This document shows, piece by piece, positions 8,479-43,194 of a stretch of 64,000 bases of DNA. Origin of the DNA: Okamejei kenojei. Taxonomy: Eukaryota. Where the stretch lies: contig CM069148.1 of assembly GCA_035221665.1 (NCBI GenBank), forward strand, positions 10,540,001-10,604,000, written 5' to 3'. The notes beneath the pieces were generated by a model that made no database searches, had not been told where the DNA came from, and saw nothing but the letters and a program-made list of their open reading frames with translations. A program made the translations under genes and the position numbers. Numbering within the stretch: the first letter of the stretch is position 1; each line of letters starts with the position of its first letter.

Positions 8479-8538
8479 GAAATTGAATTAAACAAGAAGC
8501 TGTCTAAAGATACATCAGCTGTTCAAGAAGAGAAACAG
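8479..8538 (+). CDS. CCDC73: CCDC73 coding exon
   Basis: catag|GAA...CAG|gt, 60 bp. EIELNKKLSKDTSAVQEEKQ vs human [20 protein letters not shown]. Confidence 0.92.
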
Positions 8539-8659
8539 GTTGGGTTAAAACCATTTAGTAACTGAATTAATCTTATTTATGAGCTGAAATATTCATAAGA
8601 GTTTACTGCAATTTTAGCATTTAATTTTTAAGCCTGAATTGTCATATGTATTCTCAACC

Positions 8660-9300
8660 TACACATAGAACGGTTCAGCAGAGAAACAGGTAATTCGACA
8701 CACATTGTCCATGCCCAACATACATCTCCTCTGACTGCATGCGTCAATTCCCTGCATTTTCCTAGTGCCTTAAATGCCACTCTCATGTCTGCTTCCACCA
8801 TCACCCCTGGCAGCGCATTTCCAGGAACCCATCACACTGTGTGTGAAAATAAAACTTTCTCCGTACATTTCCTTTAAACTTTCCACCCCCCTTTCTCAAT
8901 CTTCAAGTCTTCAGGATTTCCAACTTGGGGGAAAAAGGTTCTATCTACTCTATGCTCTCATAATTTTAGGTAGACATAATGTTATATATTTTTAGTTCGT
9001 CCCCCCTCAAATTCCAATGCTGCACGGAAACCAATCTGAGTTTGTCCAACCTCTCCTTATAGCTAATACCTTTTAATCCAGGCATCATTCTGATGAATCT
9101 CTTCTGCAGCCTCTCACCCTCTCCAAAGCTTCCACATCTTTCTAGTAATGGGGCAACCGAAACGGCATACAAAACTGCAAATGAGGCATAACATGACCTT
9201 GTACTCAATTAAGTACTCGATCAATGAAGGCAAGCATGCCGTTCGTCTTATTTGCCACTCCATGTATTTACATTGCCACTTTCAGGGAGCTATGGACTTG
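8660..9300 (-). mobile_element. CR1-like LINE 3' fragment (degenerate)
   Basis: ORF 8966..9208 contains ERLQKRFIRMMPGLKGISYKERLDKLRL (CR1 ORF2 C-terminal region). Boundaries approximate. Confidence 0.8.
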
Positions 9301-10280
9301 TAGGACATGCTCGTGATTGCTAACATATTTGCAACTGTAAGTAGACTGATGGGAAAACACAGTTGTACTTTTTGTTTATCTACCTATACCATCAATAGCA
9401 AAAACTTGACCATGCTTATTAATTCTTTATATTATTCTATTCTTTCATTCAGAGCATTCTTGACCACAGCAATAAATAAAATAAATATTCACTAACATTC
9501 TTCAGAGCCATGTTACGGCTTTAAGGGGATGTTATACTGCAGCTAATCAGGTAGCATTCCCTTGAGCTCTTTGTATTTAATTCATTAAATAATTTAGTTG
9601 TATAATGATGTGTCACATGTTAGGAATAGAGCACAGTTTTAAACAAATATTTCTGCATATTCTATTTGTGGTTTCTGTTTATTCCTGACAATTTAGTTAG
9701 TGCTGAAAATTTTTCATGAATATTCAATGTTAAAATTTGACTAAGATTGGTTTAGTCTTGTGGGGGAAATATTGTGTGGAATTCTAAATAATGGTAATTT
9801 AGTATAACCAAGATTTCCATTAAACTGAAGTCAGTTAGCACAAAATAATCTAATCGGGAATTGTCTGGGATAATTTTGAGCATTTGATGTGCACAAAGTT
9901 TAAATGCAATGACCTGCAGAATATTTCACAAATCCTGCTTTAATTGGCTGGGGCACAGAGTTCCTGTCAGATATTTTGATTGAAATGTGTGCTGAATCTT
10001 TTGAGCCAACAGAGGGATGTGGCAAATATCCACAGTATGGCATAAACCGACCCATACTGAATAGCTGGAGCCTGGCTCTGCTTTCCTCTGGTAACTGTAC
10101 CCCAACTAACTCCCACTAATAAATTAATGAATCATTTCCAGCAATTGGTCAAGTGATTATATTGTTAAATATAATTGATAATTTGATTAAATTTGATCAT
10201 TTGTTAAATTTACTGGGAAAGAAAGATAGCTTAGTTTCCCATCTAAAGCTTGCTTAATGTTGCAAGATTGAATTGAATCA

Positions 10281-10418
10281 TCTTCTTCTTCCGTATGGCG
10301 TGCACAGCCTAAAGCTGTAGGACAACTTGTTCTATTTGATCCTATTTGATTGTACATGCCGGGTTAATTGCATTTGTTGAAACAGGCGGACAACGTGAAG
10401 GTTGCAATCTTCCACCCC
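10281..10418 (-). mobile_element. Short SINE-like retroelement with (GAA)n tail and HDV-like ribozyme head
   Basis: ~140 bp. The - strand ends in GAAGAAGAAGA. The element is flanked by an imperfect direct repeat (ttgaattgaatca / ttgaactgaataa) consistent with an aged TSD. No tRNA A/B box at the head. Confidence 0.75.
10367..10418 (-). ncRNA. Minimal HDV-like self-cleaving ribozyme (slightly mutated copy)
   Basis: The - strand reads GGGGTGG-AAG-ATTGCA-ACC-TTCACGT-TGT-CCGCCT-G-TTTCAA-CAAA-TGCAAT. This maps to P1, J1/2, P2, P3, L3, P3', P1', P1.1, mini-P4, J4/2 with catalytic C, and P2', in the correct nested double-pseudoknot order. Confidence 0.7.
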
Positions 10419-10987
10419 GAGTTGAACTGAATAATATCAAACAAAGCACAAGGAGTCCATTCAGCCCAACATGCCTATGACGTCTCTCAACAAAATATTC
10501 TGTGTTCCTTGCTCTTCTTCTTATCCAGTCCACACACAAGATTAGAAGTTGTTCAGCCAGAGCTGAACACACTTCTCGGCATTTGCATACAATGGTGTCT
10601 GCCCAGCGCTTCTTGTGCGTGGTGATGGAAAGATTGGTGGAAACAGGGCCGCTACGTGAACACTCTTTCCTTGAGCCCTTCCTTGCTCTGACCCATTGGT
10701 CTTGTATTTTCCTTTTCACAAGTATATTTTGAAGCTGATTCTTCAATGTATTATGTGCGTGAAATAAACATTATCAGCATTTCACCTCTGGCAATCATTT
10801 TCCAAATAACCTGGAAATGTTTTCTCCCAATCTAAATAAATGTTTTATCATTTTAAAATGTATCCTTTGCTATTGTTATCTTAGGAGAATACTCGCAAAT
10901 GACCTTGTCTCTTCTCATAATCAAAGTCCTGTTTCCTAATTTAACTGTAGTAAATCACTTGCACTACTATAGTAAAATCTTTCTCCC

Positions 10988-11821
10988 CTTTCCTACCTAC
11001 TCTAAGTTCAGCTCTCTCGCCATTGTTTTGTTCATGACTGCTTCTGTTCCTGTTCGTTTAAAGTTATATGGAAATCACTTTCCAGAGACTTGTGCTGCCA
11101 AAAAATGCATACAATATTCTACTGAGGCCTAATCAGTGATTTAGTCAATTTTAGGATTATTTGGTTTTGTGCTTTATTCTTCCATTTATTCAGCTAAATA
11201 TCTCATTCCTTTTTCTAAAAGGCTTGTTAACATATTGTGCCTCCTTCAAAGATATATATGTGAAGCTCTGAATCTCACAATTACTCCCCCTTTTTTACTG
11301 CCATTGAATGTTTAAAATTCTGCAGTATTCTTTAATGATGAGCACTAAATTCTCCAAATCTTCTATGAATATTTATTCAAAAAACAGATTGACTTATTCA
11401 TCTCTTTCCTACTTGCTGTATGTGACATAGGTACCTTTCTCATGTCTACATAATAGCTGTTTTATTGCTTTGTGAAATATTTTGCAATGTTCCTGTCAAT
11501 ACAGTTCTCAGTTAAATGAACAGTGAGGTTATTCTGAAAGCAATTAAGTTGTGGGCTTACTTATCAGCTGTAAGTTAAATTCATAGTTTTCATTGTGTGA
11601 GCTGTCACCACAAGTGGGAGTCGGGTTGTACCAGGAAGAGAGCTGCCAGCAAGAATCGGGTCAGAAGTTGGGTTGGACTACTGAGTTAATAATTGGCATT
11701 TGGCTGCATCTCTTGCACCGGTCTTTCCACCCCCATACGCTCTTTCACCTCTTTCCTACCTCTTCAGCTCTCTCGCCATTTTCTGTTCATGACTGCTTCT
11801 GTTCGTGTTCGGTTTAAAGTT
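10988..11821. repeat. Dispersed ~75-bp direct repeat (10988-11065 and 11751-11821)
   Basis: CTTTCCTACCT...TTCAGCTCTCTCGCCATT..TGTTCATGACTGCTTCTGTTC.TGTTCG.TTTAAAGTT occurs twice, ~760 bp apart. Confidence 0.85.
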
Positions 11822-12499
11822 GAATATTTTCGTTTATAGAATTGGCTGGTGTGATGCTTGCGGATGATTTCAGTGTTTATTTCTCTTCCGCATGGGGAAT
11901 AAATGTAATCAAGATTTAACAATTCTTTTGTGCACAGGTTAATATAACCTGTAAAATTGTAGAAAATAAAACTTACCGATTTCAATCAGTTTTGCTCAGT
12001 TTGTATACTCACATCTGCTTTTTCAGCTATTTGAATTAAATATTGTATTAACACTGTTTAATTCAGAGTTTGTTTAGGTTTTGTTTTCATTTTATCCCTG
12101 ACTTAAAATTTATTGGGTTTAAATTATATATTTCCCAAATATCTATGATGGAGCATTTTTAAATAGCTACATCATTGTCTAATTTTCAAATTAGATCCTA
12201 AGACTTGAGAATCAAATGGCAGCTGGCTAATTATTGATTCAAGAATTTGCCTAAATGTTCGCAAATTATAAAATAATCCAAACCCATACATTTTGACTGT
12301 TCCCTTGATATCTAAAACTTACAATAGCATACCTAAAAGTGTATATTTGAACTATCAAGCTGTATACATACATTTTGGTGAATATAAGAAACATGCTCAG
12401 CAGAAGAAAACACATGTTTGTTAGGTTCCAGAGGACATTCTGTGCTCTTCATGTTACATTAAAAGTAAATTAACATTTAAAGTGCTTTGTTTCCATCAG

Positions 12500-12604
12500 G
12501 AAGTTTTGAAGTTGTTTCAACAAACTCAACAGCTGCTACAACGGCAGGAACTGGCTCTTGGGCGAGCAGAAAAGGAGCTGAAACATTTTGGGGAGAAGCA
12601 TCAG
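12500..12604 (+). CDS. CCDC73: CCDC73 coding exon
   Basis: catcag|GAA...CAG|gtcaga, 105 bp. EVLKLFQQTQQLLQRQELALGRAEKELKHFGEKHQ vs human [35 protein letters not shown] (same 35-aa length). Confidence 0.9.
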
Positions 12605-12717
12605 GTCAGAATGTTTATAGTGTACATTTTTATTGATGTGTAATTTTCCAACGGTACTTTATGATTGATTAATTGTGCATGGTTTTTGAGCACTGAAAAT
12701 CAACTATTTTAAAACAT

Positions 12718-17557: not shown

Positions 17558-18848
17558 GGACGTGGCGTCGAGGGACGAGAAGCCGGAGCAAAGAAGTGGA
17601 AGCCAAATAACCGAACGGAAACGAAGCCGAAACTCCAAATAATCTAAAGCGTACAAAGCCGAAACGCCAACTAACCGAAAGGGTGGGACGCCTAAAAGCA
17701 AACTCACCGAAAGACCGCTCTGCCGAAATGCCAACTCACCGAAAGGCTGCGTTGGCAGCGCCGGGTGGAGCAGAGGTGAAAGACCAGCACCTACCAACAA
17801 TGAAGGCACTATGAAACCAGCTGCCGCAAGCCCTTCCTACAGGACGGGGTCAGCATTAAAACTCAAAAAAGAGCTACTAGTTTTTACATTCAGGAATCTG
17901 GTTAATTAAGTGGGGGAATGGATAGTGTGGGCGGCGATGGTGATGCCGCCCAGGGGTGGAGGGTGGGGATAGCGGGAGCGATACAGCACGAGGGGGGGGG
18001 ATAGTGGGGGTGGACGTGGCAATGCCGCCCGGTGGAGGGGGGAACAGCATGGGCGATGCCGCCCAGCAGCGGAGCGCCGCACTCACCCACTGCGAACTCT
18101 TTACCGACTCGATCTGCCGTTGGCGTTGCTGCTGCAAGTTGGTCAGAGGCGGCAGGTGACCGCCGCCACCACCGCTCTTTGACAGCGGGAATATCCAGCT
18201 CATTGCTGGAGATGTTTCGGGGGCGACCCTGGCTCAGCCGGCCATCTGGGGGTCCGACTACTGGCAGCAATCAGTCGACTATTGCCATCATCCGACCGAC
18301 ACAGCTTGTCACAGTACAGCCGCACGGGGGAGACGCAGCGGAGGGTGGCCATTGGCCGTGGGAGAGTGGGGGCTGTCCCGAGGGATGCGCTCCTTCAGCC
18401 GCTTACAACTTGGTGCTCGGGTTCAGAATGCCCAGTCACCTATGGCTTGTGTGGGAAAATGACCTCCACCCTCCCGTCTCAATCGGCCAATGATGTGATG
18501 GATGCGGACAAGTCCCACCCCCCCCCGGCGACGTCATGTCTGTTATTTGCCTTTTCGGCAGAGCGGCCATTTGGTGAGTTGGCTTGTAGGTGACGCAGCC
18601 TTTCGGTGAGTTGGTGTTTCGGCAGAGAGGTCTTTCAGTGAGTTTGCTTTTAGGCGTCCCACCCTTTCGGTTAGTTGGCGTTCCGGCTCGTACGCTGTTG
18701 GTTAGTTGGCGTTCCGGCTCGTACACTGTCGGTTAGTTGGCGTTCCGGCTCGTACGCTGTCGGTTAGTTGGCGTTCCGGCTTAGTTTCCATTCGGTTATT
18801 TGGCTTCCACTTCTTTGCTTCGGCTTATCGTCCTTCAACGCCACGTCC
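17558..18848. mobile_element. Foldback-like non-autonomous DNA transposon with long modular inverted repeats
   Basis: 17558-17752 is the reverse complement of 18593-18848 (GGACGTGGCG...CGCCACGTCC). The arms are built of CCGAA-containing subrepeats and enclose a CpG-rich noncoding core. No TSD identified. Confidence 0.8.
18667..18781 (+). repeat. 31-bp tandem repeat (~3.7 copies) in the right arm of the foldback element
   Basis: TCGGTTAGTTGGCGTTCCGGCTCGTACGCTG starts at 18667, 18698, 18729 and 18760. Confidence 0.92.
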
Positions 18849-30575: not shown

Positions 30576-31332
30576 GTGGCTAGGATCTACTTTATTCAGT
30601 AATGCCCAGGATCAATGACACTTAAAGCACACTCCATTCGGAGGATGTCAATGTTAATGCAACATAAGTCCCAGATATAACTACAACTTTCTAAAAATTA
30701 TATATTCTGTTTGAAACAACTCATCTAAGAAGGAGGAAATGCAATTTCATAGTTCTATGTCTTATCATCACTTAAAAATAATCTGTAAAGTTAATTGTGA
30801 TAACACAAAGAAGCAGGTAGCCACAGATTTAGAGGAGTCCCCCAACAACATTAATAGCCTTTGGTATTTGTTCAGCAAAAGTAGTCTCATCCAGTCTGTG
30901 CAGAGGTCTCCCTAGTGGAACATAGAACAGTACAGCACAAAAACAATCCCTTTCAGCCCACAATGTCTGTGCCGAACATAATATTAAAACCCATCTCTAT
31001 TCTACCTGCGTATAATCCATATCCTATGCAAAAGCTTCTTAAATTCCACTATCGTATCTGCCTCAACCACCAACTCTTTTTTTTAAATTTCAAAATAGAC
31101 TTTATTCAAATGATAAATATATACAATACATGAACCTTGCGGAAAATCCATCCGACATTTTCGGAGGCTATACAAATTGATCAATACAGTTTATACATTT
31201 ATTTTCCCCAAATTTCACAAATGTGTCCCCCACCCGTGCCACCCATGTGGCCCATTGGCATGGGATACCTTCCCTTATTTTGAGGGGCGTCTCCACCATA
31301 CCGTGCTCCCCATGTCCAGCAGCGGAAGGGCC

Positions 31333-34300
31333 CTAGACTGTGGTCCTCCCCCACCGAGCCTTGGCGTTGGCTGCACCGAGCTACAGTGCGTCCCTCAGCA
31401 TGTACTCCTGCAGTCTGCAGCGGGCCAGTCGGCAACATTCCCTGACGGACATCTCGCTCTGCTGGGTGGTGAACATCGCTCGGGCAGACCAAAGAGCATC
31501 TTTCACCAAGTTGATGACCCTCCAGCAGCACTCGATGTCTGTCTCTGAATGTGTCCCTGGGAACAGTCCGTAAATCACAGAGTCCTCTATGACGGAGCTG
31601 TTCGGGATAAAGTGTACCAGGGACCCTTGCATTTTTCTCCAGACTCTTTTAACAAATCCACACTCTGCAAAGAGGTGGGAAACCTGTCTCCTCTCCATAG
31701 CAGCCGTCCCGAGGGCAGCGTGCGCTGGCAGTGAGGTTCCGACGGTGCAGGAAGGATCTGACTGGGAGGGCTCCCCTCACCGCCAGCCAAGCCAGGTCTT
31801 GGTGCTTGTTGGTGAGTTCTGGCGATGAGGCATTTTGCCAGACAAGCTGGGCAGTCTGCTCAGGGAACCACGCCACCGGGTCCATCGAGTCCTTTCCCTG
31901 CAGTGCCTGCAGCACATTCTGTGCTGACCACTGCCCAATGGACGTGTGATCAAAGGTGTTGGTCCGGAAGAACCTTTCCACAGTCGACAAATGAGGCGGC
32001 AATGTCCAGCTGACTGGCACATTGCGTGGCATCTGCGCCAGGCCCATCGCAACACCGGGGGCAGGTAGAACCTCAGCAGGTAGTGACACTTGGTGCCCAC
32101 GTGCCTTGGCTCTACATTCCGCCTGATGCAGCCACACACAAAGGTGGCCATCAGAATGAGGGCGACGTTGGGCACGCTTTTATCCCCGTTGTCTGCTGAC
32201 TTGTACATTGTGGCCCTTCGCACCTGGTCTATCGTCAATCCCCAGATTAACTGGAAGACGGCCCGGGTGATCGCTGTGGCGTAGGAGGGAGGAACAGACC
32301 ACACTTGTGCCAAGTACAGCAGCCCCGAGAGCACCTCACACCTGATGACCAAATTATTTCCCGTCTTGGAGAGGGAGCGTTGCCTCCACAGCTCCAGCTT
32401 CCTCCCCACCCTGGCTATCCGCTCCAGCCAATTCTTGTTATACGCCTCAGCCCCCCCGAACCAGATCCCCAGCACCTTAAAGAAGTCAGGCTTGATGGTG
32501 AAGGGGACAGAAGATCTGTCGGGCCAGTTGCCAAAGAGCATGGCCTCGCTCTTCCTGCGGTTCAACCTGGCTCCCGTGGCCGACTCAATCTGGTCGCAGA
32601 TACTAATCAGTCTGCGGACCGACCCTGGATCCGAGCAGAAGACAGCGACATCGTCCATGTACAGGGAGGTTTTTACTTGAATGCCCCTACTGCCAGGCAA
32701 TGTCATTCCACTTATGCTCGCATCCTTCCTGATGGATTCGGCAAAGGGTTCAATACAGCAGACAAACAAGACAGGAGAGAGAGGGCAACCCTGCCTGACT
32801 CCAGACCTTACAGGGAAACTGCCTGATTCCCACCCATTGATTTGGACTGCACTACGGATGTTGGTGAAGAGCAGTTTGATCCAATTCCTGATTCCCTCCC
32901 CAAAACCCATTTTGGAGAGCACGTCCCTCATGTATGTGTGCAAAATCCTGTTGAAGGCCTTCTCCTGGTCCAAGCTGACTAGGCAGGCATCCATCCGTCT
33001 GTCCTACACATAGGCGATGGTATCTCTCAGCAGCGCTAGGCTGTCTGAGATTTTCCTGCCAGGTACAGCACAGGTTTGGTCCGGGTGGATCACTTGTCCC
33101 AGAGCAGACTTGACCCGGTTGGTGATGGCCTTAGACAGGATCTGGTAGTCTACATTCAAGAGTGTTATGGGTCTCCAATTCTTTATGTCCTTCATCTCCC
33201 CCTTCTGCTTGTAGATTAGGGTGATGTTGCCCTTCCTCATGGAGTCTGACATCCTGCCAGCTCGAAGCATGTCATTGTACACTTCTAGCAGGTCCGGGCC
33301 CATCCAGTCCCACAGAGCCGAATATAACTCAGCCGGTAAGCCATTGCTTCCGGGAGTTTTACTCGAGTCAAAGGAACGGATGGAGCCAGTCAGCTCCTCT
33401 AGGATCAGTGGTTGGTCCAGAGTCTCCCGCTTGTTGTCCTCCAAGACCTCCGTGATCGAGGACAGGAAGTTCTGGGAGGAGGTACTGTCTGTGGCCTTTT
33501 GGTCATACAAATCTGTGTAAAAGGATTTGCAGATCCTCAGCATGTCTGTCTGTGAGGATGCTACCGAGCTGTCCTCCTCCCTAAGGCTGTTCATCACAGA
33601 GCTCCCCCTGTGAACCTTATGGAAGAAGAAACGTGAGCACGTCTCATCCTGCTCCACATGGCGGACCCTGGATCAGAAAATGATCTTGGAGGATTCCGAG
33701 GTAAAGAGCCGAGCTTGCCGGTCCTTCACCTCTCTAAGTTCCTCCCTCACATCCACCCCTCTCGACTGCAGAAGGAGCAGTTGTTGCAAATCTGTCTGGA
33801 GTTGGCACAATTCCCTCTGACTCTGTCTTGCTCTCTGAACCCCTTTAATTATGAAGAACCTCTTAATGTTCTTGGTTGCTTCCCACCAGAGTGTCAGGGA
33901 GTCAAAGAGGGGCCTCACCGTTCACCAACATGCGTAGTCCCTCTTTAGCTCCTCAACGTTCTCTGGGGTCAACAGCTTCATGTTTAACTTCCACGTCCCT
34001 CTGCCTGCCTTCCGGTCCTCCTGTAGGTGACAGGAAGCCTGAAGGAGGCAGTGGTCGGAGAAGAACACCGGCGTGACGTCAGTGTGTCTCACCGTGACGG
34101 CCTTCGTCGTGAAGACGAAGTCTATCCGAGATCGGGCTAAACCGTCCGATCTCGACCAGGTGAACCGCGGCTGGGACCCGCCTGCAGGGTCGCTGAAGGC
34201 GTCGCGCAGCTTTGCGTCTTTTACCATCTCCATCAGGAACTTGGACGTGCTGTCCAGTCTGTTGTCGGCACTGCCGGATCGTCCAGCCGCATCAATGATG

Positions 34301-34734
34301 CAGTTGAAGTCACCGGCCAGAATGAGCTGCCGGGACGTGGCCAGCAGCACTGGAAGCTGCTGGAGAACGGCCAGCCGCTCGCTCTGCGTGGGTGAGGCAT
34401 ACACATTTATCAGCCGGAGCGGAGAGCCACGGTACATAACATCCACCACGAGGAGACGCCCTCCAACCACTTCCCTGACCTCAGTGATGGCGAAGTTCCC
34501 TCCCCGCAGCAAGATCCCCAGGCCGGAAGCATGACAGTCATTGCCCCCCGACCACACCGACAGTCCGTGGGGCCACCATCGCGACCACCTCCGGTAGCAG
34601 CGGAGGTGTGGCAACCAGCACTCCTGAAGAAAGGTTACATCTGCCTTGACCTTGGCCAGGTACTGTAAGGCATTTACACATCGCGCAGTGCTCTTTATAC
34701 TGCGCACGTTTAAAGATGCCAGTTTGAGCTCCAT
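31333..34734 (-). pseudogene. Tx1 ORF2: APE endonuclease + reverse transcriptase + C-terminal zinc-finger region, with frameshifts and stops
   Basis: APE motifs SLNVRS, FLQE, INVYAS, AGDFN, SRIDF, FSDH. RT motifs WRPITLLNVDY, LDQEKAF, GVRQGCPLSP, LYMDD. C-terminal CPR..C...HLFAEC. Confidence 0.95.
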
Positions 34735-34745
34735 TGTCTTTAGAG

Positions 34746-36304
34746 TCACTGAGCATTTCCGTGTCCCCTCATTCCCACCGCTTCGGTGAATTGCCTCAGC
34801 TTTCCTGGGCTCAGGAATCCAGCGCCGGCATCCTCGATGAGGTAGGTTTCAGGTGGCGTAACCAAAGGTGTCGTTGGGGGGGGCCTTCTTGTTCCACCCC
34901 CTTTTGGCCGCGCCGCTTCCTCCGTCTCCTGTAGCTGGGTCACGGTGGCTGGTTCACTGCTCCCAGAAACCCGGAGCTGGGGCCCAATGGCCTCGGCGCT
35001 GCTCCTGGTCGCCCGGAGCTGGGGCCCATTGGCCGTTGCAATGCTCCCGGTCGCCCGGAGCTGGGGCCCATTGGCCGCTGTGATGATCCCAGTCTCCAGG
35101 GGCTGGAGCCCATTGGCCGCTGTGATGATCCCAGTCTCCAGGGGCTGGAGCCGCTCGACTGCTGCACTGTTCCCGATGTCCTGGGGCTGGAGCCCCTCAG
35201 CCGCTTCTCTGCTCTCGGTCTCCTGGGGCTGGGAGATGATCGTCGTGGCCTCTCTCTTTTCCTACCCCGTTTTCTTCCTCTGCCTCCATCGTTGGGACTT
35301 CCCGGTCACCTCATCCTCCGACGAGGAGAGGTTGCTGCCTTCTGCAAGAGAAAGAGACCTTTTTTGGGGGTTTACTTTTGGACTTACCAGTCCTTTCCGG
35401 CCTCGGCTCTTTGGGCTGACCCCTCTGGTGCTTCTTGTACTTCACCGTTGTCCATTTCTCCTGCTGTTCCCCCTCTTCCATTGACTCTCCCTCCTGGGCA
35501 GGATGCTGGGGTCTCCTTCTGGCACTTGGGGCCTCAAGGTGGTTGGGGTGTCCTCATCCGTGTTCCCTCTTTCTGCTGGGGTCTTGGCAGTGGTGGGGGG
35601 TGTTGGGGGTGCTGGCAGCAGCCCCTCTTGTCGCCTGTGCGTAGGTGCAGGCCCTGTAAAGGTGGCCTGCCTCTCCGCACAGGTTGCAGTTCTTGCTGGC
35701 CTGACAGTCCTTTGTCTCATGGCCCTCCGTCTTGCAGTTTTTGCAGACAACTGCAGTGCATTGGGCCATCACGTGCCCAGGCTTGTTGCATTTCATGCAC
35801 AGCCTGGGTTGCCCCACGTAGCTCAGGTATCCTCGGTTTCCCCCGATCGCGAAAACCGAGGGAGGGTGGATGATTTCTCCATCCTTGTCCACCCTCAGCT
35901 TTACCTTGACTTGCCGCTTGCTCGTCCAAATCCCATGCAGGTCCTTCACGTCCACACAGTTCCCTGTTCCCTCGACGTAGCGAGCAAGGAAGGTGAGGTC
36001 ATCCACTACGGGCACATGTGGGTTCAGCAGCGACAGCGGAGCTTCATTCCCCCTCTCCCGGACGTCTTCCATCACCTTCTGCCATCGATGTTACCGTCGG
36101 ATACTTGAAGGTAACATCAAACTATCCGTTACCCGGGAACTCCTGGAGGCAGTAGATGTCCTTGACCACAAATTTTCAGGCCTCTAGCAAGACCTTCTTC
36201 ACGAACAGGTCTCGTGAGAAGGGGGTCCCCTTGCTGAGGTCCTTGACGCTTATTCTCAGGGTATTCCGAATACCCTATACTCCTGCTCCTGTTGCTGCTG
36301 ACAT
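34746..36304 (-). pseudogene. Tx1 ORF1: ZCCHC3-like RRM + three CCHC zinc knuckles, disrupted
   Basis: gccacaATG at 36304. IRNTLRI...DIYCLQEFPG..FDVTF, then CMKCNKPGHVMAQC, CKNCKTEGHETKDC, CNLCGEAGHLYRAC. Stop at 34746-48, 11 nt before the ORF2 ATG. Contains in-frame stops and frameshifts. Confidence 0.9.
34970..35232. repeat. 42-bp (14-codon) degenerate tandem repeat inside Tx1 ORF1
   Basis: ~6 units, e.g. CCCGGAGCTGGGGCCCATTGGCCGTTGCAATGCTCCCGGTCG. Visible as a 14-aa periodicity in the ORF track. Confidence 0.88.
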
Positions 36305-40112: not shown

Positions 40113-40307
40113 CTAATTATTCATATTAATTATAAGGAATGTTTGCTATGAATAATTCAGTCTGAAGGATGTAACATACTTGTTTTCAGTTGCACAACTT
40201 GTGTTCACGTTGAATCATACCTGCTTCCATGCATCTATAATTGTATGTTTCTTTATTTTGTTAAATTTTTCTCTGCGCCGGCCTCATTGCATTGCGATCT
40301 CTATATA

Positions 40308-41919
40308 CAGTGGCTTGCAAAAGTATTCATACCCGTTGAACTTTTCCACATTTTGTCACGTTACAACCACAAACGTAAATGTATTTTATTGGGATTTTAT
40401 GTGATAGACCAACACAAAGTGGTGCATTATTGTGAAGTGGAAGGAAAATGATACATGGTTTTCAAATTCTTTTACAAATAAAAAACTGAAAAGTGTGGCA
40501 TGCAAAAGTATTCAGCCCCCTTTACTCTGATACCCCGAAATAAAATCCAGTGCAACCAATTGCCTTCAGAAGTCACCTAATTAGTAAATAGAGTCCACTT
40601 GTGTGTAATCTAATCGCAGTATAAATACAGCTGTACTGTGAAGGCCTCAGAGGTTTGTTAGAGAACATTAGTGAACATCAGCATCATAAAGCCGAAGGAA
40701 CACACCAGACAGGTTAGGGATAAAGTTGTGGAGAAGTTTAAAGCAGGGTTAGGTTATAAAAAAATATCCCAAGCTTTGAACATCTCACGGAGCACTGTTC
40801 AATCCATCATCCGAAAATGGATAGAGTATGGTACAACTGCAAACCTACCAAGACATGGCCATCCACCTAAACTGACAGGCCGGGCAAGGAGCGCATTGAT
40901 CAGAGAAGCAGCCAGAGGCCCGTGGTAACTGGAGGAGCTGCAGAGATCCACAGCTCAGGTGGAAGAATCTGTCCATAGGACAACTATTAGTCGTGCACTC
41001 CACAAATCGGGCCTTTATGGAAGAGTGGCAAGAAGAAAGCCATTGTTGAAACAAAGCCATAAGAAGTCCCGTTTGCAGTTTGCCACAAGCCATGTGGGGG
41101 ACCCAGCAAACATGTGGAGGAAGGTGCTCTGGTCTGATGAGACCAAAATTGAAGTTTTTGGCCTAAATGCAAAATGCTATGTGTGGCGGAAAACTAACAC
41201 TGCACATCACCCTGAACACACCATCCCCACTGTGAAACATGGTGGTGGCAGCATCATGCTGCGGGGATGCTTTTCTTCAGCAGGGACAGGGAAGCTGGTC
41301 AGAGTTGATGGGAAGATGGATGGAGCCAAATACAGGGCAATCTTGGAAGAAAACCTGTTAGAGTCTGCAAAAGACTTGAGACTGGGGCGGAGGTTCACCT
41401 TCCAGCAGGACAACGATCTAAACATACAGCCAGAGCTACAATGGAATGGTTTAGATCAAAGCATATTCATGTGTTGGAATGGCCCAGTCAAAGTCCAGAC
41501 CTAAATCCAATTGAGAATCTCTGGCAAGACTTGAAAATTGCTGTTCACAGACGCTCTCCATCCAATCTGACTGAGCTTGAGCTATTTTTCAAAGAAGAAT
41601 GGGCAAAAATTTCAGTCTCTAGATGTGCAAAGCTGGTAGAGACATACCCCAAAAGACTTGCAGCTGTAATTGCAGCGAAAGGTGGTTCTACAAAGTATTA
41701 ACTCAGGGGGGCTGAATACTCTTGCACGCCACACTTTTCAGTTTTTTATTTGTAATAAAATTTGGAAACCATGTATCATTTTCCTTCCACTTCACAATTA
41801 TGCACCACTTTGTGTTGGTCTATCACATACAATCCCAATAAAATACATTTACATTTGTGGTTGTAACGTGACAAAATGTGGAAAAGTTCAAGGGGTATGA
41901 ATACTTTTGCAAGCCACTG
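40308..41919 (+). mobile_element. Tc1-family (DD34E) DNA transposon, full-length, IR/DR-type TIRs
   Basis: TA TSD (40306-07, 41920-21). ~213-bp TIRs CAGTGGCTTGCAAAAGTATTCA... (40308-40520, 41707-41919), each carrying inner and outer TGCAAAAGTATTCA-like direct repeats. Confidence 0.97.
40686..41701 (+). pseudogene. Tc1 transposase, frameshifted (start codon ATA, two frameshifts)
   Basis: Paired-like HTH GYKKISQALNISRSTVQSII, ARRKPLL, WSDETK, FQQDND and [11 protein letters not shown] are split across ORFs 40671, 40959 and 41441. Confidence 0.95.
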
Positions 41920-43194
41920 TACATACACACCGTGCAGACCATTTTGTACTCATTAATCTGTAAAGATGAAAACAAATATACTGCACTTGCTCTAAATCTA
42001 AAATAAAAACAAATGCTGGAAGCATTTTCCATTTGTGAAAAGCAAAGATTTTATGTAACATGTCACTGACCTTACATCATAACTGGGAGAAGATTGAAAT
42101 TTAGTTTGAAATGCTTCTGACCTGCTGATTATTTCAGAATTTTCTACTTTTTAACACTTAAGGTTGGTTTGCTTTAAATTTGCCAGTTACTGTAGATTGT
42201 GGTATCATTTTGGCAGCTGAGTTATTTGAGTGATTAGTCTGCCCTTTTCCATGTGGCTGCTGTAATATTATCATTAACATGCAAATGGACACCGCTGCAA
42301 CACGGCACAGCCAGATTAAATGACATTGGAGGATGTTTTTCTGCTGGTTTATTGAGTACACAAAGACATAACGTGAAACATAACCAAACTATTGCAGATT
42401 ATTGTTCCTTTTAAATGCTAGAACATGCTACTGTGTTGATTCGTTTGATAAAGGCCTTCCATCCCTGCAACACATTACATAATTTATTATTAACCTATTT
42501 TCCCCCTTATCCTCTCCTGTTTAAATACTAACTCGCATATTGACGTATTGGCTGCCAAACTCAAATGTGTAACAATGGTACTTAAATATTAATTCCCCAT
42601 CTCCTTTGTCTCCCTTTTTACCTTGTACATAATGAGATTTAAATCTAGTCATCGGTAATGTTTTACTGTCAGTCTGTGGTATTGCATTTGTTTTGAGATG
42701 TCTGCCCAGAGTTTTTCTGTTCACAATGTTTATTTATTATTCTCTGTTATCATCAGAGAGTTCTTATTATTTCCTTTTAAATCAGCATTGGCCACTTTGT
42801 CTCTCCATGGAAGTGCCTCCTACACTTTCATAAAAATTCTGAATGTTTTACTATCTGTTTATAACCAGGGCCTTAGGAGACTGCATGCTTTATTAATTCA
42901 CTTCCGTGGTAATTCAATATGGGTCTCACCTAGGTTAAAATAATAAAATCAGATCTTTGTACAAAACCTGTTGTGAGAATGTGGCTTTAATCTCAATTTC
43001 GTTTTTTACATCCACAGAATCTTACAGTACACTCAGGCTTTTGTTTCTATGCCAATTGTCTTTAAAAATCATGCAATAATTCACACTTGACTGCTTTATT
43101 TATCATCTCCCACTTTATAGCTTTGTCAACTATTTGAGATGTGTTTTCAGATTAGACTGATATCGAAGTAGAAGGCATCTCCCTTGCATCCATG

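Follow-up and report, generated by a model that had tools for sequence, protein, structure and literature searches.

A short repeat on the minus strand of the 64-kb stretch of skate DNA analysed here (the window) belongs to a family of 135-base retro-elements. We consider it quite likely that the element is an internally deleted copy of a Vingi-type LINE, and that its 54-base HDV-like head cuts the RNA just before the first base of the element, G1. If true, this family and a second one lying beside it would be among the smallest ribozyme-bearing retro-elements. P4-less HDV-like ribozymes, so far known almost only from phages of the gut, would here head vertebrate retro-elements of high copy number, whose thousands of natural variants could be used to probe how much change the fold accepts.

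The first-pass annotation described an HDV-like double pseudoknot on the minus strand, and the helices it described are present in the sequence. The G-run starts at 10418, as read directly from the letters. P1 of the window copy (10417-10412 with 10389-10384) has the 6 bp and the G-U first pair that were claimed, but the P1 of the family has 7 bp and starts from 10418. J1/2 corresponds to 10411-10410. P2 (10409-10403 with 10372-10366) is also present, with a closing G-U and a length of 7 bp, one more than claimed. P3 (10402-10400 with 10392-10390) contains the single mismatch already reported, a C-U at 10392, and L3 occupies 10399-10393. The CAAA assigned to J4/2 is found at 10376-10373, and the near absence of P4 is borne out by a 7-nt linker at 10383-10377, in which the last 6 nt could form one U-A pair closing a 4-nt loop. 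The parts of the element and its surroundings are as follows:

10366..10418, minus strand: family-1 head with the P4-less HDV-like fold (G1 = 10418; 54 nt in the family, 53 in the window copy), as identified by descriptor, aligned copies and covariation
10373..10376, minus strand: J4/2 strand CAAA, with the predicted catalytic C at 10376
10377..10383, minus strand: 7-nt linker in the place of P4, consisting of the G for a single P1.1 pair and then 6 nt
10342..10418, minus strand: segment corresponding to the first 77 nt of a full-length Vingi-type LINE (82% to copy L095)
10321..10341, minus strand: junction of ~21 nt that has no colinear LINE match and carries a 7-nt inverted copy of the LINE 3′ end, giving the inner hairpin
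10280..10320, minus strand: segment corresponding to the LINE 3′ end, with the last codons, stop, short 3′ UTR and GAA tail
10422..10432, minus strand: 5′ copy of the family-1 target duplication (11 bp, one mismatch, 3 extra nt before G1)
10268..10278, minus strand: 3′ copy of the family-1 target duplication
8557..12559, plus strand: host context between two mapped CCDC73 exons (8479-8556 and 12560-12607; tblastn, exon ends approximate)

The copy had been suspected of being inactivated, and it does carry two lesions: one C is gone from the 3′ strand of P1, so that the first pair has moved to 10417, and P3 carries the C-U mismatch. An HDV descriptor, built from general rules for the fold and then compared with those given in PMC6326823 and PMC4908430, has the window copy as its sole match in the 64-kb window, scanned on both strands with one P3 mismatch tolerated. 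At the same setting, 20 of 20 dinucleotide shuffles of the window contain no match. With zero P3 mismatches there is no match in the window. The first version of the descriptor, in which P1 was fixed at 7 bp, missed the window copies of both families and all 30 family-2 loci. A looser setting gave one further match at 41226, probably by chance. The Rfam scan of the 64-kb window returned no ribozyme match. Thermodynamic folding of the 54-nt head gave z-scores of -0.25 and +0.50, which are uninformative because the method is blind to pseudoknots.

The window copies of both families are antisense to CCDC73, and the stretch 8557..12559 is likely an intron of that gene. The large exon in the window is that of CCDC73, with 88% identity to the Rhinoraja protein, and nine exons of the host gene were mapped at 7445-45494 of the window (plus strand). 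Given its two core lesions and its antisense site between CCDC73 exons, the window copy is likely an inert fossil.

The family as a whole is large and has a fixed 5′ end. A DNA search for family 1 returned 2,599 candidates, of which 40 were scored. Three exact patterns occur 9,752, 12,123 and 13,415 times in the genome (reversed-pattern controls, 0); exact-pattern counts are lower bounds, so the copy number is at least 13,415. For an unbiased sample, the first 30 loci with a mid-body word were taken, a selection that ignores 5′ ends (two of them, L212 and L214, have common flanks and are thus not independent). G1 is reached by 28 of the 30, the other two being 5′-truncated, in agreement with the earlier claim that copies start at the G-run. 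Target duplications with a score of at least 7 were found in 19 of 27 copies with a well-matching head, against 3 of 135 controls; 12 of the 19 are 11 bp long and 13 lie directly at G1. The element also breaks at G1, or at the base before it, in the contigs of three other organisms, which are assembled and hence uninformative on expression.

The 28 aligned copies differ from column majorities by a mean of 6% and form two subfamilies of 12 and 16 copies. The family majority has a 7-bp P1, a 7-bp P2, a 3-bp P3 and the J4/2 C, and so restores the P1 and P3 pairing that is damaged in the window. The 3′ strand of P3 is intact in 92 of the first 100 genome matches, and the J4/2 C is retained in 92 of the first 100 as well (both eye counts) and in 26 of 28 aligned copies; its catalytic role is predicted from PMC6326823. 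The J4/2 family variants CUAA and CCAA, along with the distant relatives, deviate from the strict CRRA of PMC6326823. The strict descriptor is satisfied by 10 of the 30 unbiased copies. A variant that breaks P3, GGC, is shared by 5 of 28 aligned and 5 of 100 genome copies, and a source copy with an imperfect P3 therefore probably still spread. The P3 variant of the window copy itself does not define a subfamily, being present in 9 of the 30 best matches but in 0 of 100 unbiased ones.

Three further observations concern individual family-1 copies. At one insertion (L025:1400-1750, run X14), each of the two flanks has matches in contigs from another organism, with no contig bridging them, which hints at an orthologous insertion present in both genomes. 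Head-to-tail joints in contigs suggest tandem dimers. Family-1 elements are also nested within Vingi-type LINE copies (L071:701-838, oriented; L119; L289).

The second family sits ~90 bases from the family-1 copy and is represented in the window by these features:

10516..10678, minus strand: family-2 copy of ~163 nt, with a P4-less HDV-like head and a GAA tail
10678-10626, minus strand: family-2 head with a 6-bp P1 (P1 and P3 damaged in the window copy)
10679..10689, minus strand: 5′ copy of the family-2 target duplication (11 bp, perfect, abutting G1), with the 3′ copy at 10515-10505

There are at least 1,416 family-2 copies in the genome, and 16 of the best 30 matches satisfy the strict descriptor when P1 is set to 6 bp. 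The two families have the same linker length (7 nt) and the same L3, whereas their P2 and P3 pairs differ. The last 70 nt of family 2 correspond, at 90%, to the 3′ end of another Vingi-type LINE (L269), which was found by protein search; using the 3′ part of family 2 as a DNA query gave short matches only and revealed no LINE. The 5′ end of this LINE was not found in the 2.5 kb examined, the 3′ match being the only one found.

The partner LINE of family 1, which the first-pass annotation expected to share the 3′ hairpin and GAA tail, was found by its 3′ end and tail. The search started from L024, which matches in the tail only, and reached a LINE with the same last ~41-46 nt; a full-length copy of it (L095, 3.04 kb) matches the element both at positions 1-77, where the first 77 nt of each are 82% identical, and at the 3′ end. 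In a further search, many LINE copies ended in or at this head. Because the LINE itself begins with the ribozyme head and the 3′ end is LINE-matched too, the family-1 element is, on its sequence, a bipartite, internally deleted, non-autonomous LINE with a junction of ~21 nt. Like a SIDE, it matches the LINE at both ends and is dispersed, with target duplications and a microsatellite tail. The original proposal of a ribozyme-SINE family in a vertebrate holds in that a dispersed retro-element family exists in skate, but this family is an internally deleted LINE and not an independently built SINE. The head of the autonomous LINE is also P4-less, with an equally short linker, which places the loss of P4 before the internal deletion.

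The same comparison makes it very improbable that the element is a tRNA-derived Pol III SINE bearing an HDV-like head by chance. The linker does contain TTCGA, which we take to be a tRNA T-loop-like motif, yet the head is the 5′ end of the LINE and shuffled sequences give 0 descriptor matches. ARAGORN found 0 genes in 6 of 6 loci. In a scan with A and B box motifs, an A-box-like word at element position 5 differed from the motif by 3 mismatches, and no B box was seen in the right place. Derivation of the head from tRNA, 5S or 7SL RNA with A and B boxes is not borne out, and the tRNA/Pol III origin was rejected because the head, the ARAGORN result and the box scan all contradict it.

The frames of the partner LINE match the APE and RT Pfam families, and RNase H is absent. 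An intact relative (P0001, 1,019 aa) spans the LINE end to end and is 75% identical over the RT frame. The RT motifs match, by eye, the printed sequence of the hedgehog element Ingi-1_AAl, which we take to be the element later renamed Vingi, a group formerly named Ingi. With a single ORF of ~1,000 aa containing APE and RT, no RNase H, and a length of ~3 kb, the LINE has the architecture described for Vingi in PMC3708506 and PMC13708176. We call it Vingi-type on this architecture and motif likeness rather than on a tree of named references; an RT tree, which had 2 of 14 branches well supported and no named references, was left out of the classification.

Several features of related LINE copies were recorded along the way. 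Among near-full-length copies, many (L093, L103, L107, L108, L112, L114, L120, L124 and others) have 5′ inversions, or have a 3′ part lying inverted upstream of the head. A further Vingi-type LINE family of ~3.1 kb, with copies ~95% alike, occurs in this genome at L298 (G000:C10, near 44,671,900, minus strand); in one damaged copy its 5′ end reads as an HDV-like head that has a 7-bp P1, a 3-bp P3 and a long P4. The loci from the protein search contain at least four types of LINE 3′ end.

HDV-like heads also occur in distant relatives. The descriptor was run over both strands of 80 metagenome loci (620,582 nt) that code for proteins related to that of the LINE. It gave 5 matches with four distinct sequences, every one of them sense-oriented and placed 64-112 nt ahead of the projected ORF start. 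A sixth site appeared in these loci when a 6-bp P1 was allowed. Controls in which the catalytic C was swapped for A, G or T gave 4 matches, 3 of which were register shifts of the same sites. There was no upstream match in 22 of the 27 loci with an N-terminal match (21 with a 6-bp P1), and 6 had no upstream sequence; the two nearest loci by RT identity, L126 and L127, are among those that have no upstream descriptor match. The distant heads have a full P4, with 16-26 nt where the skate elements have the 7-nt linker.

A covariation check of the kind proposed with the original annotation was carried out on nine rows comprising both skate families, the LINE and four of these relatives. Paired cells amount to 94.6%, compared with 37-50% in slid controls, although the four distant rows were picked by the descriptor and their pairing is partly by construction. 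Changes on both sides are seen at 12 of 17 pairs, including 6 of 7 in P2 and 2 of 3 in P3. L3 (U..CG) and a J4/2 starting with C are invariant across lineages, and P1 has 6-7 bp with a G-Y first pair (7 bp in family 1, 6 bp in family 2). The independent evidence consists of the position of the distant heads and the contrast between family 1 and family 2.

This pattern bears on the proposal that the head is a promoter, or has a dual promoter/ribozyme role as described for Pr77. A promoter or a ribozyme would each yield a single fixed 5′ end, and the presence of more than 13,000 copies of a 135-nt element suggests efficient transcription. The L1Tc/NARTc head serves as promoter and ribozyme according to PMC4035085, and PMC3383444 likewise describes both functions for the equivalent trypanosome head. 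In the heads compared here, however, the helices differ in sequence from lineage to lineage but remain paired, and the first G-Y pair, L3 and the J4/2 C are kept, as predicted for an RNA structure and not for a DNA motif. The first-pass description of the element as promoter-less finds no support here. A dual role is compatible with this, but we regard the promoter explanation as unlikely and favor a ribozyme.

Less probable again is that the P4-less head is a degenerate, non-cleaving remnant, catalysis having been lost with P4 in the skate lineage and the fold kept as a 5′ protector or protein-binding structure. A precedent for such a role exists in the cap-like 5′ protection attributed to an R2-derived HDV-like fold in PMC13708176. 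The Rfam HDV-type models give no match in the intact skate copies L002, L025 and L095, as in the window; both Rfam models that match distant relatives include P4. Outside the 17 pairs of the covariation test, P1.1 allows a single C-G pair, as does the CPEB3 consensus, against two in the PMC6326823 descriptor. Alternatively, the P1.1 G could reach over the short loop to the catalytic C and pair with it, a misfold of the kind that the design in PMC6326823 avoided. The shared P3-mismatch variant would also fit a remnant. Against this, two families with unlike P1, P2 and P3 both retain the C-N-A-A strand, L3 and the G1 start, the autonomous LINE has an equally short linker, and P4-less ribozymes are described as cleaving in vitro in PMC10879173. 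A head that cleaves is the reading we favor.

The 3′ domain was originally described as a hairpin with a CCTA/TAGG inner stem that serves in recognition by reverse transcriptase. The outer helix is confirmed, with 8-10 of 10 pairs formed in 26 of 28 family copies, but in place of the CCTA/TAGG stem the family favors a 7-bp hairpin whose loop is 3 nt long and variable; all 7 pairs form in 25 of 28 copies, a count limited by the search pattern, which fixes the 5′ arm. The 3′ domain of the window copy folds no better than shuffles (z -0.68), whereas that of an intact copy folds better (z -3.31). The outer helix pairs an arm derived from the LINE 5′ UTR with one from the LINE 3′ end, so 5′-truncated LINE copies lack this helix; the inner hairpin stems from the inverted copy in the junction. 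The last 54 nt of the LINE fold weakly (-3.75 kcal/mol, consensus fold). Since neither helix is found in the LINE 3′ end alone, the hairpin is not established as a protein recognition signal, and the common terminal ~41 nt would be the likelier candidate.

The fold, the fixed 5′ end, the common 3′ end and the duplications are the observed elements of the mechanism that we propose. A source copy would be transcribed inside a longer RNA, or possibly from an internal promoter. Its head would fold as a nested double pseudoknot lacking P4 and cut 5′ of G1, giving all RNAs one common 5′ end. The endonuclease-reverse transcriptase of the LINE could then recognise the common 3′ end in trans, and the RNA would be inserted by target-primed reverse transcription, producing the ~11-bp duplications. 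Inserted copies would decay neutrally, to the present ~6% from column majorities. The purging of sense-oriented intronic copies with an intact core could be tested genome-wide. The element would also define a natural minimal Vingi donor RNA (77 nt of 5′ and ~41 nt of 3′ sequence), which is relevant because PMC13708176 describes Vingi systems under development for gene insertion.

Short LINE derivatives with HDV-like heads have precedents. The R2 SIDEs and R2/R1 hybrid SIDEs of Drosophila (PMC3414825) similarly join a 5′ HDV-like ribozyme to a LINE 3′ end and are mobilised in trans; as described there they are rare and site-specific to rDNA, whereas the skate elements are dispersed in more than 13,000 copies, have an APE-type partner and are P4-less. 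In trypanosomatids, NARTc, RIME and SIDER are short deleted derivatives of Ingi-related LINEs (L1Tc/ingi) with an HDV-like head, and several heads of this type cleave in vitro (PMC4035085). The trypanosomatid head described in that paper is 77 nt long, has a P4, is also a promoter and occurs in protist hosts, in contrast to the 54-nt vertebrate head of the skate. The derivatives of hedgehog Vingi-1_EE (PMC5786205, PMC4494074) are likewise bipartite and come from a single-ORF, RNase H-less vertebrate Vingi LINE. The drz-Mtgn-1 and theta ribozymes of PMC10879173 resemble the skate heads in being P4-less, in having the first G at the boundary and in the C that starts J4/2. The minimal HDV-like set presented in PMC10879173 is ~99% phage, often beside tRNAs, with human, mouse and protists as its eukaryotes; unlike that phage set, the skate form heads a vertebrate retro-element. 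HDV-like ribozymes are known from lamprey and lancelet (PMC8256844). As far as the literature was searched, a P4-less head in a vertebrate and its derivation from Vingi are new and the combination has no earlier description; the families may already be in Repbase or Dfam.

The CPEB3 ribozyme (RF00622) shares with the skate heads the L3 UUCACGU, a 2-nt J1/2 and a G-U after P1, and with family 2 also P3. It differs in being single-copy and in having a P4, and RF00622 does not score the tested family-1 heads. The model does score two Vingi-like 5′ ends (L172:2606-2689 and L173:2188-2271), at 55.6 bits against a threshold of 35. The 5′ end of gharial Vingi-2, from the supplement of PMC5786205, agrees by eye with the CPEB3 consensus over two stretches: 38 of 40 positions match in the one running from P1 into P4, and 13 of 13 in the one that reaches from the end of P4 through P2. 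These positions are free to vary in other lineages, and near-identity where variation is tolerated elsewhere suggests that Vingi 5′ ends and the CPEB3 ribozyme are of common descent. This would be a checkable origin for the mammalian ribozyme. A wider proposal, to which we give a little less than even weight, is that an HDV-like fold is the standard Vingi 5′ end, present in skate as a 53-54-nt P4-less form in more than 14,000 copies, many of them competent to cut, and that the mammalian CPEB3 ribozyme is a domesticated Vingi 5′ end.

Other mobile or repeated sequences were noted in the window. A decayed LINE, presumably Tx1-like, lies at 31200-36100 (minus strand). It has RT and endonuclease frames, an ORF1-like frame and, at 34924-35217, a 42-bp tandem repeat. 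Transposase frames flanked by 226-nt inverted repeats, presumably those of a Tc1/mariner-like element, are found at 40295-41932. Nested inverted repeats of 31-32-bp tandem units, with a core of ~800 nt, occupy 17558-18848.
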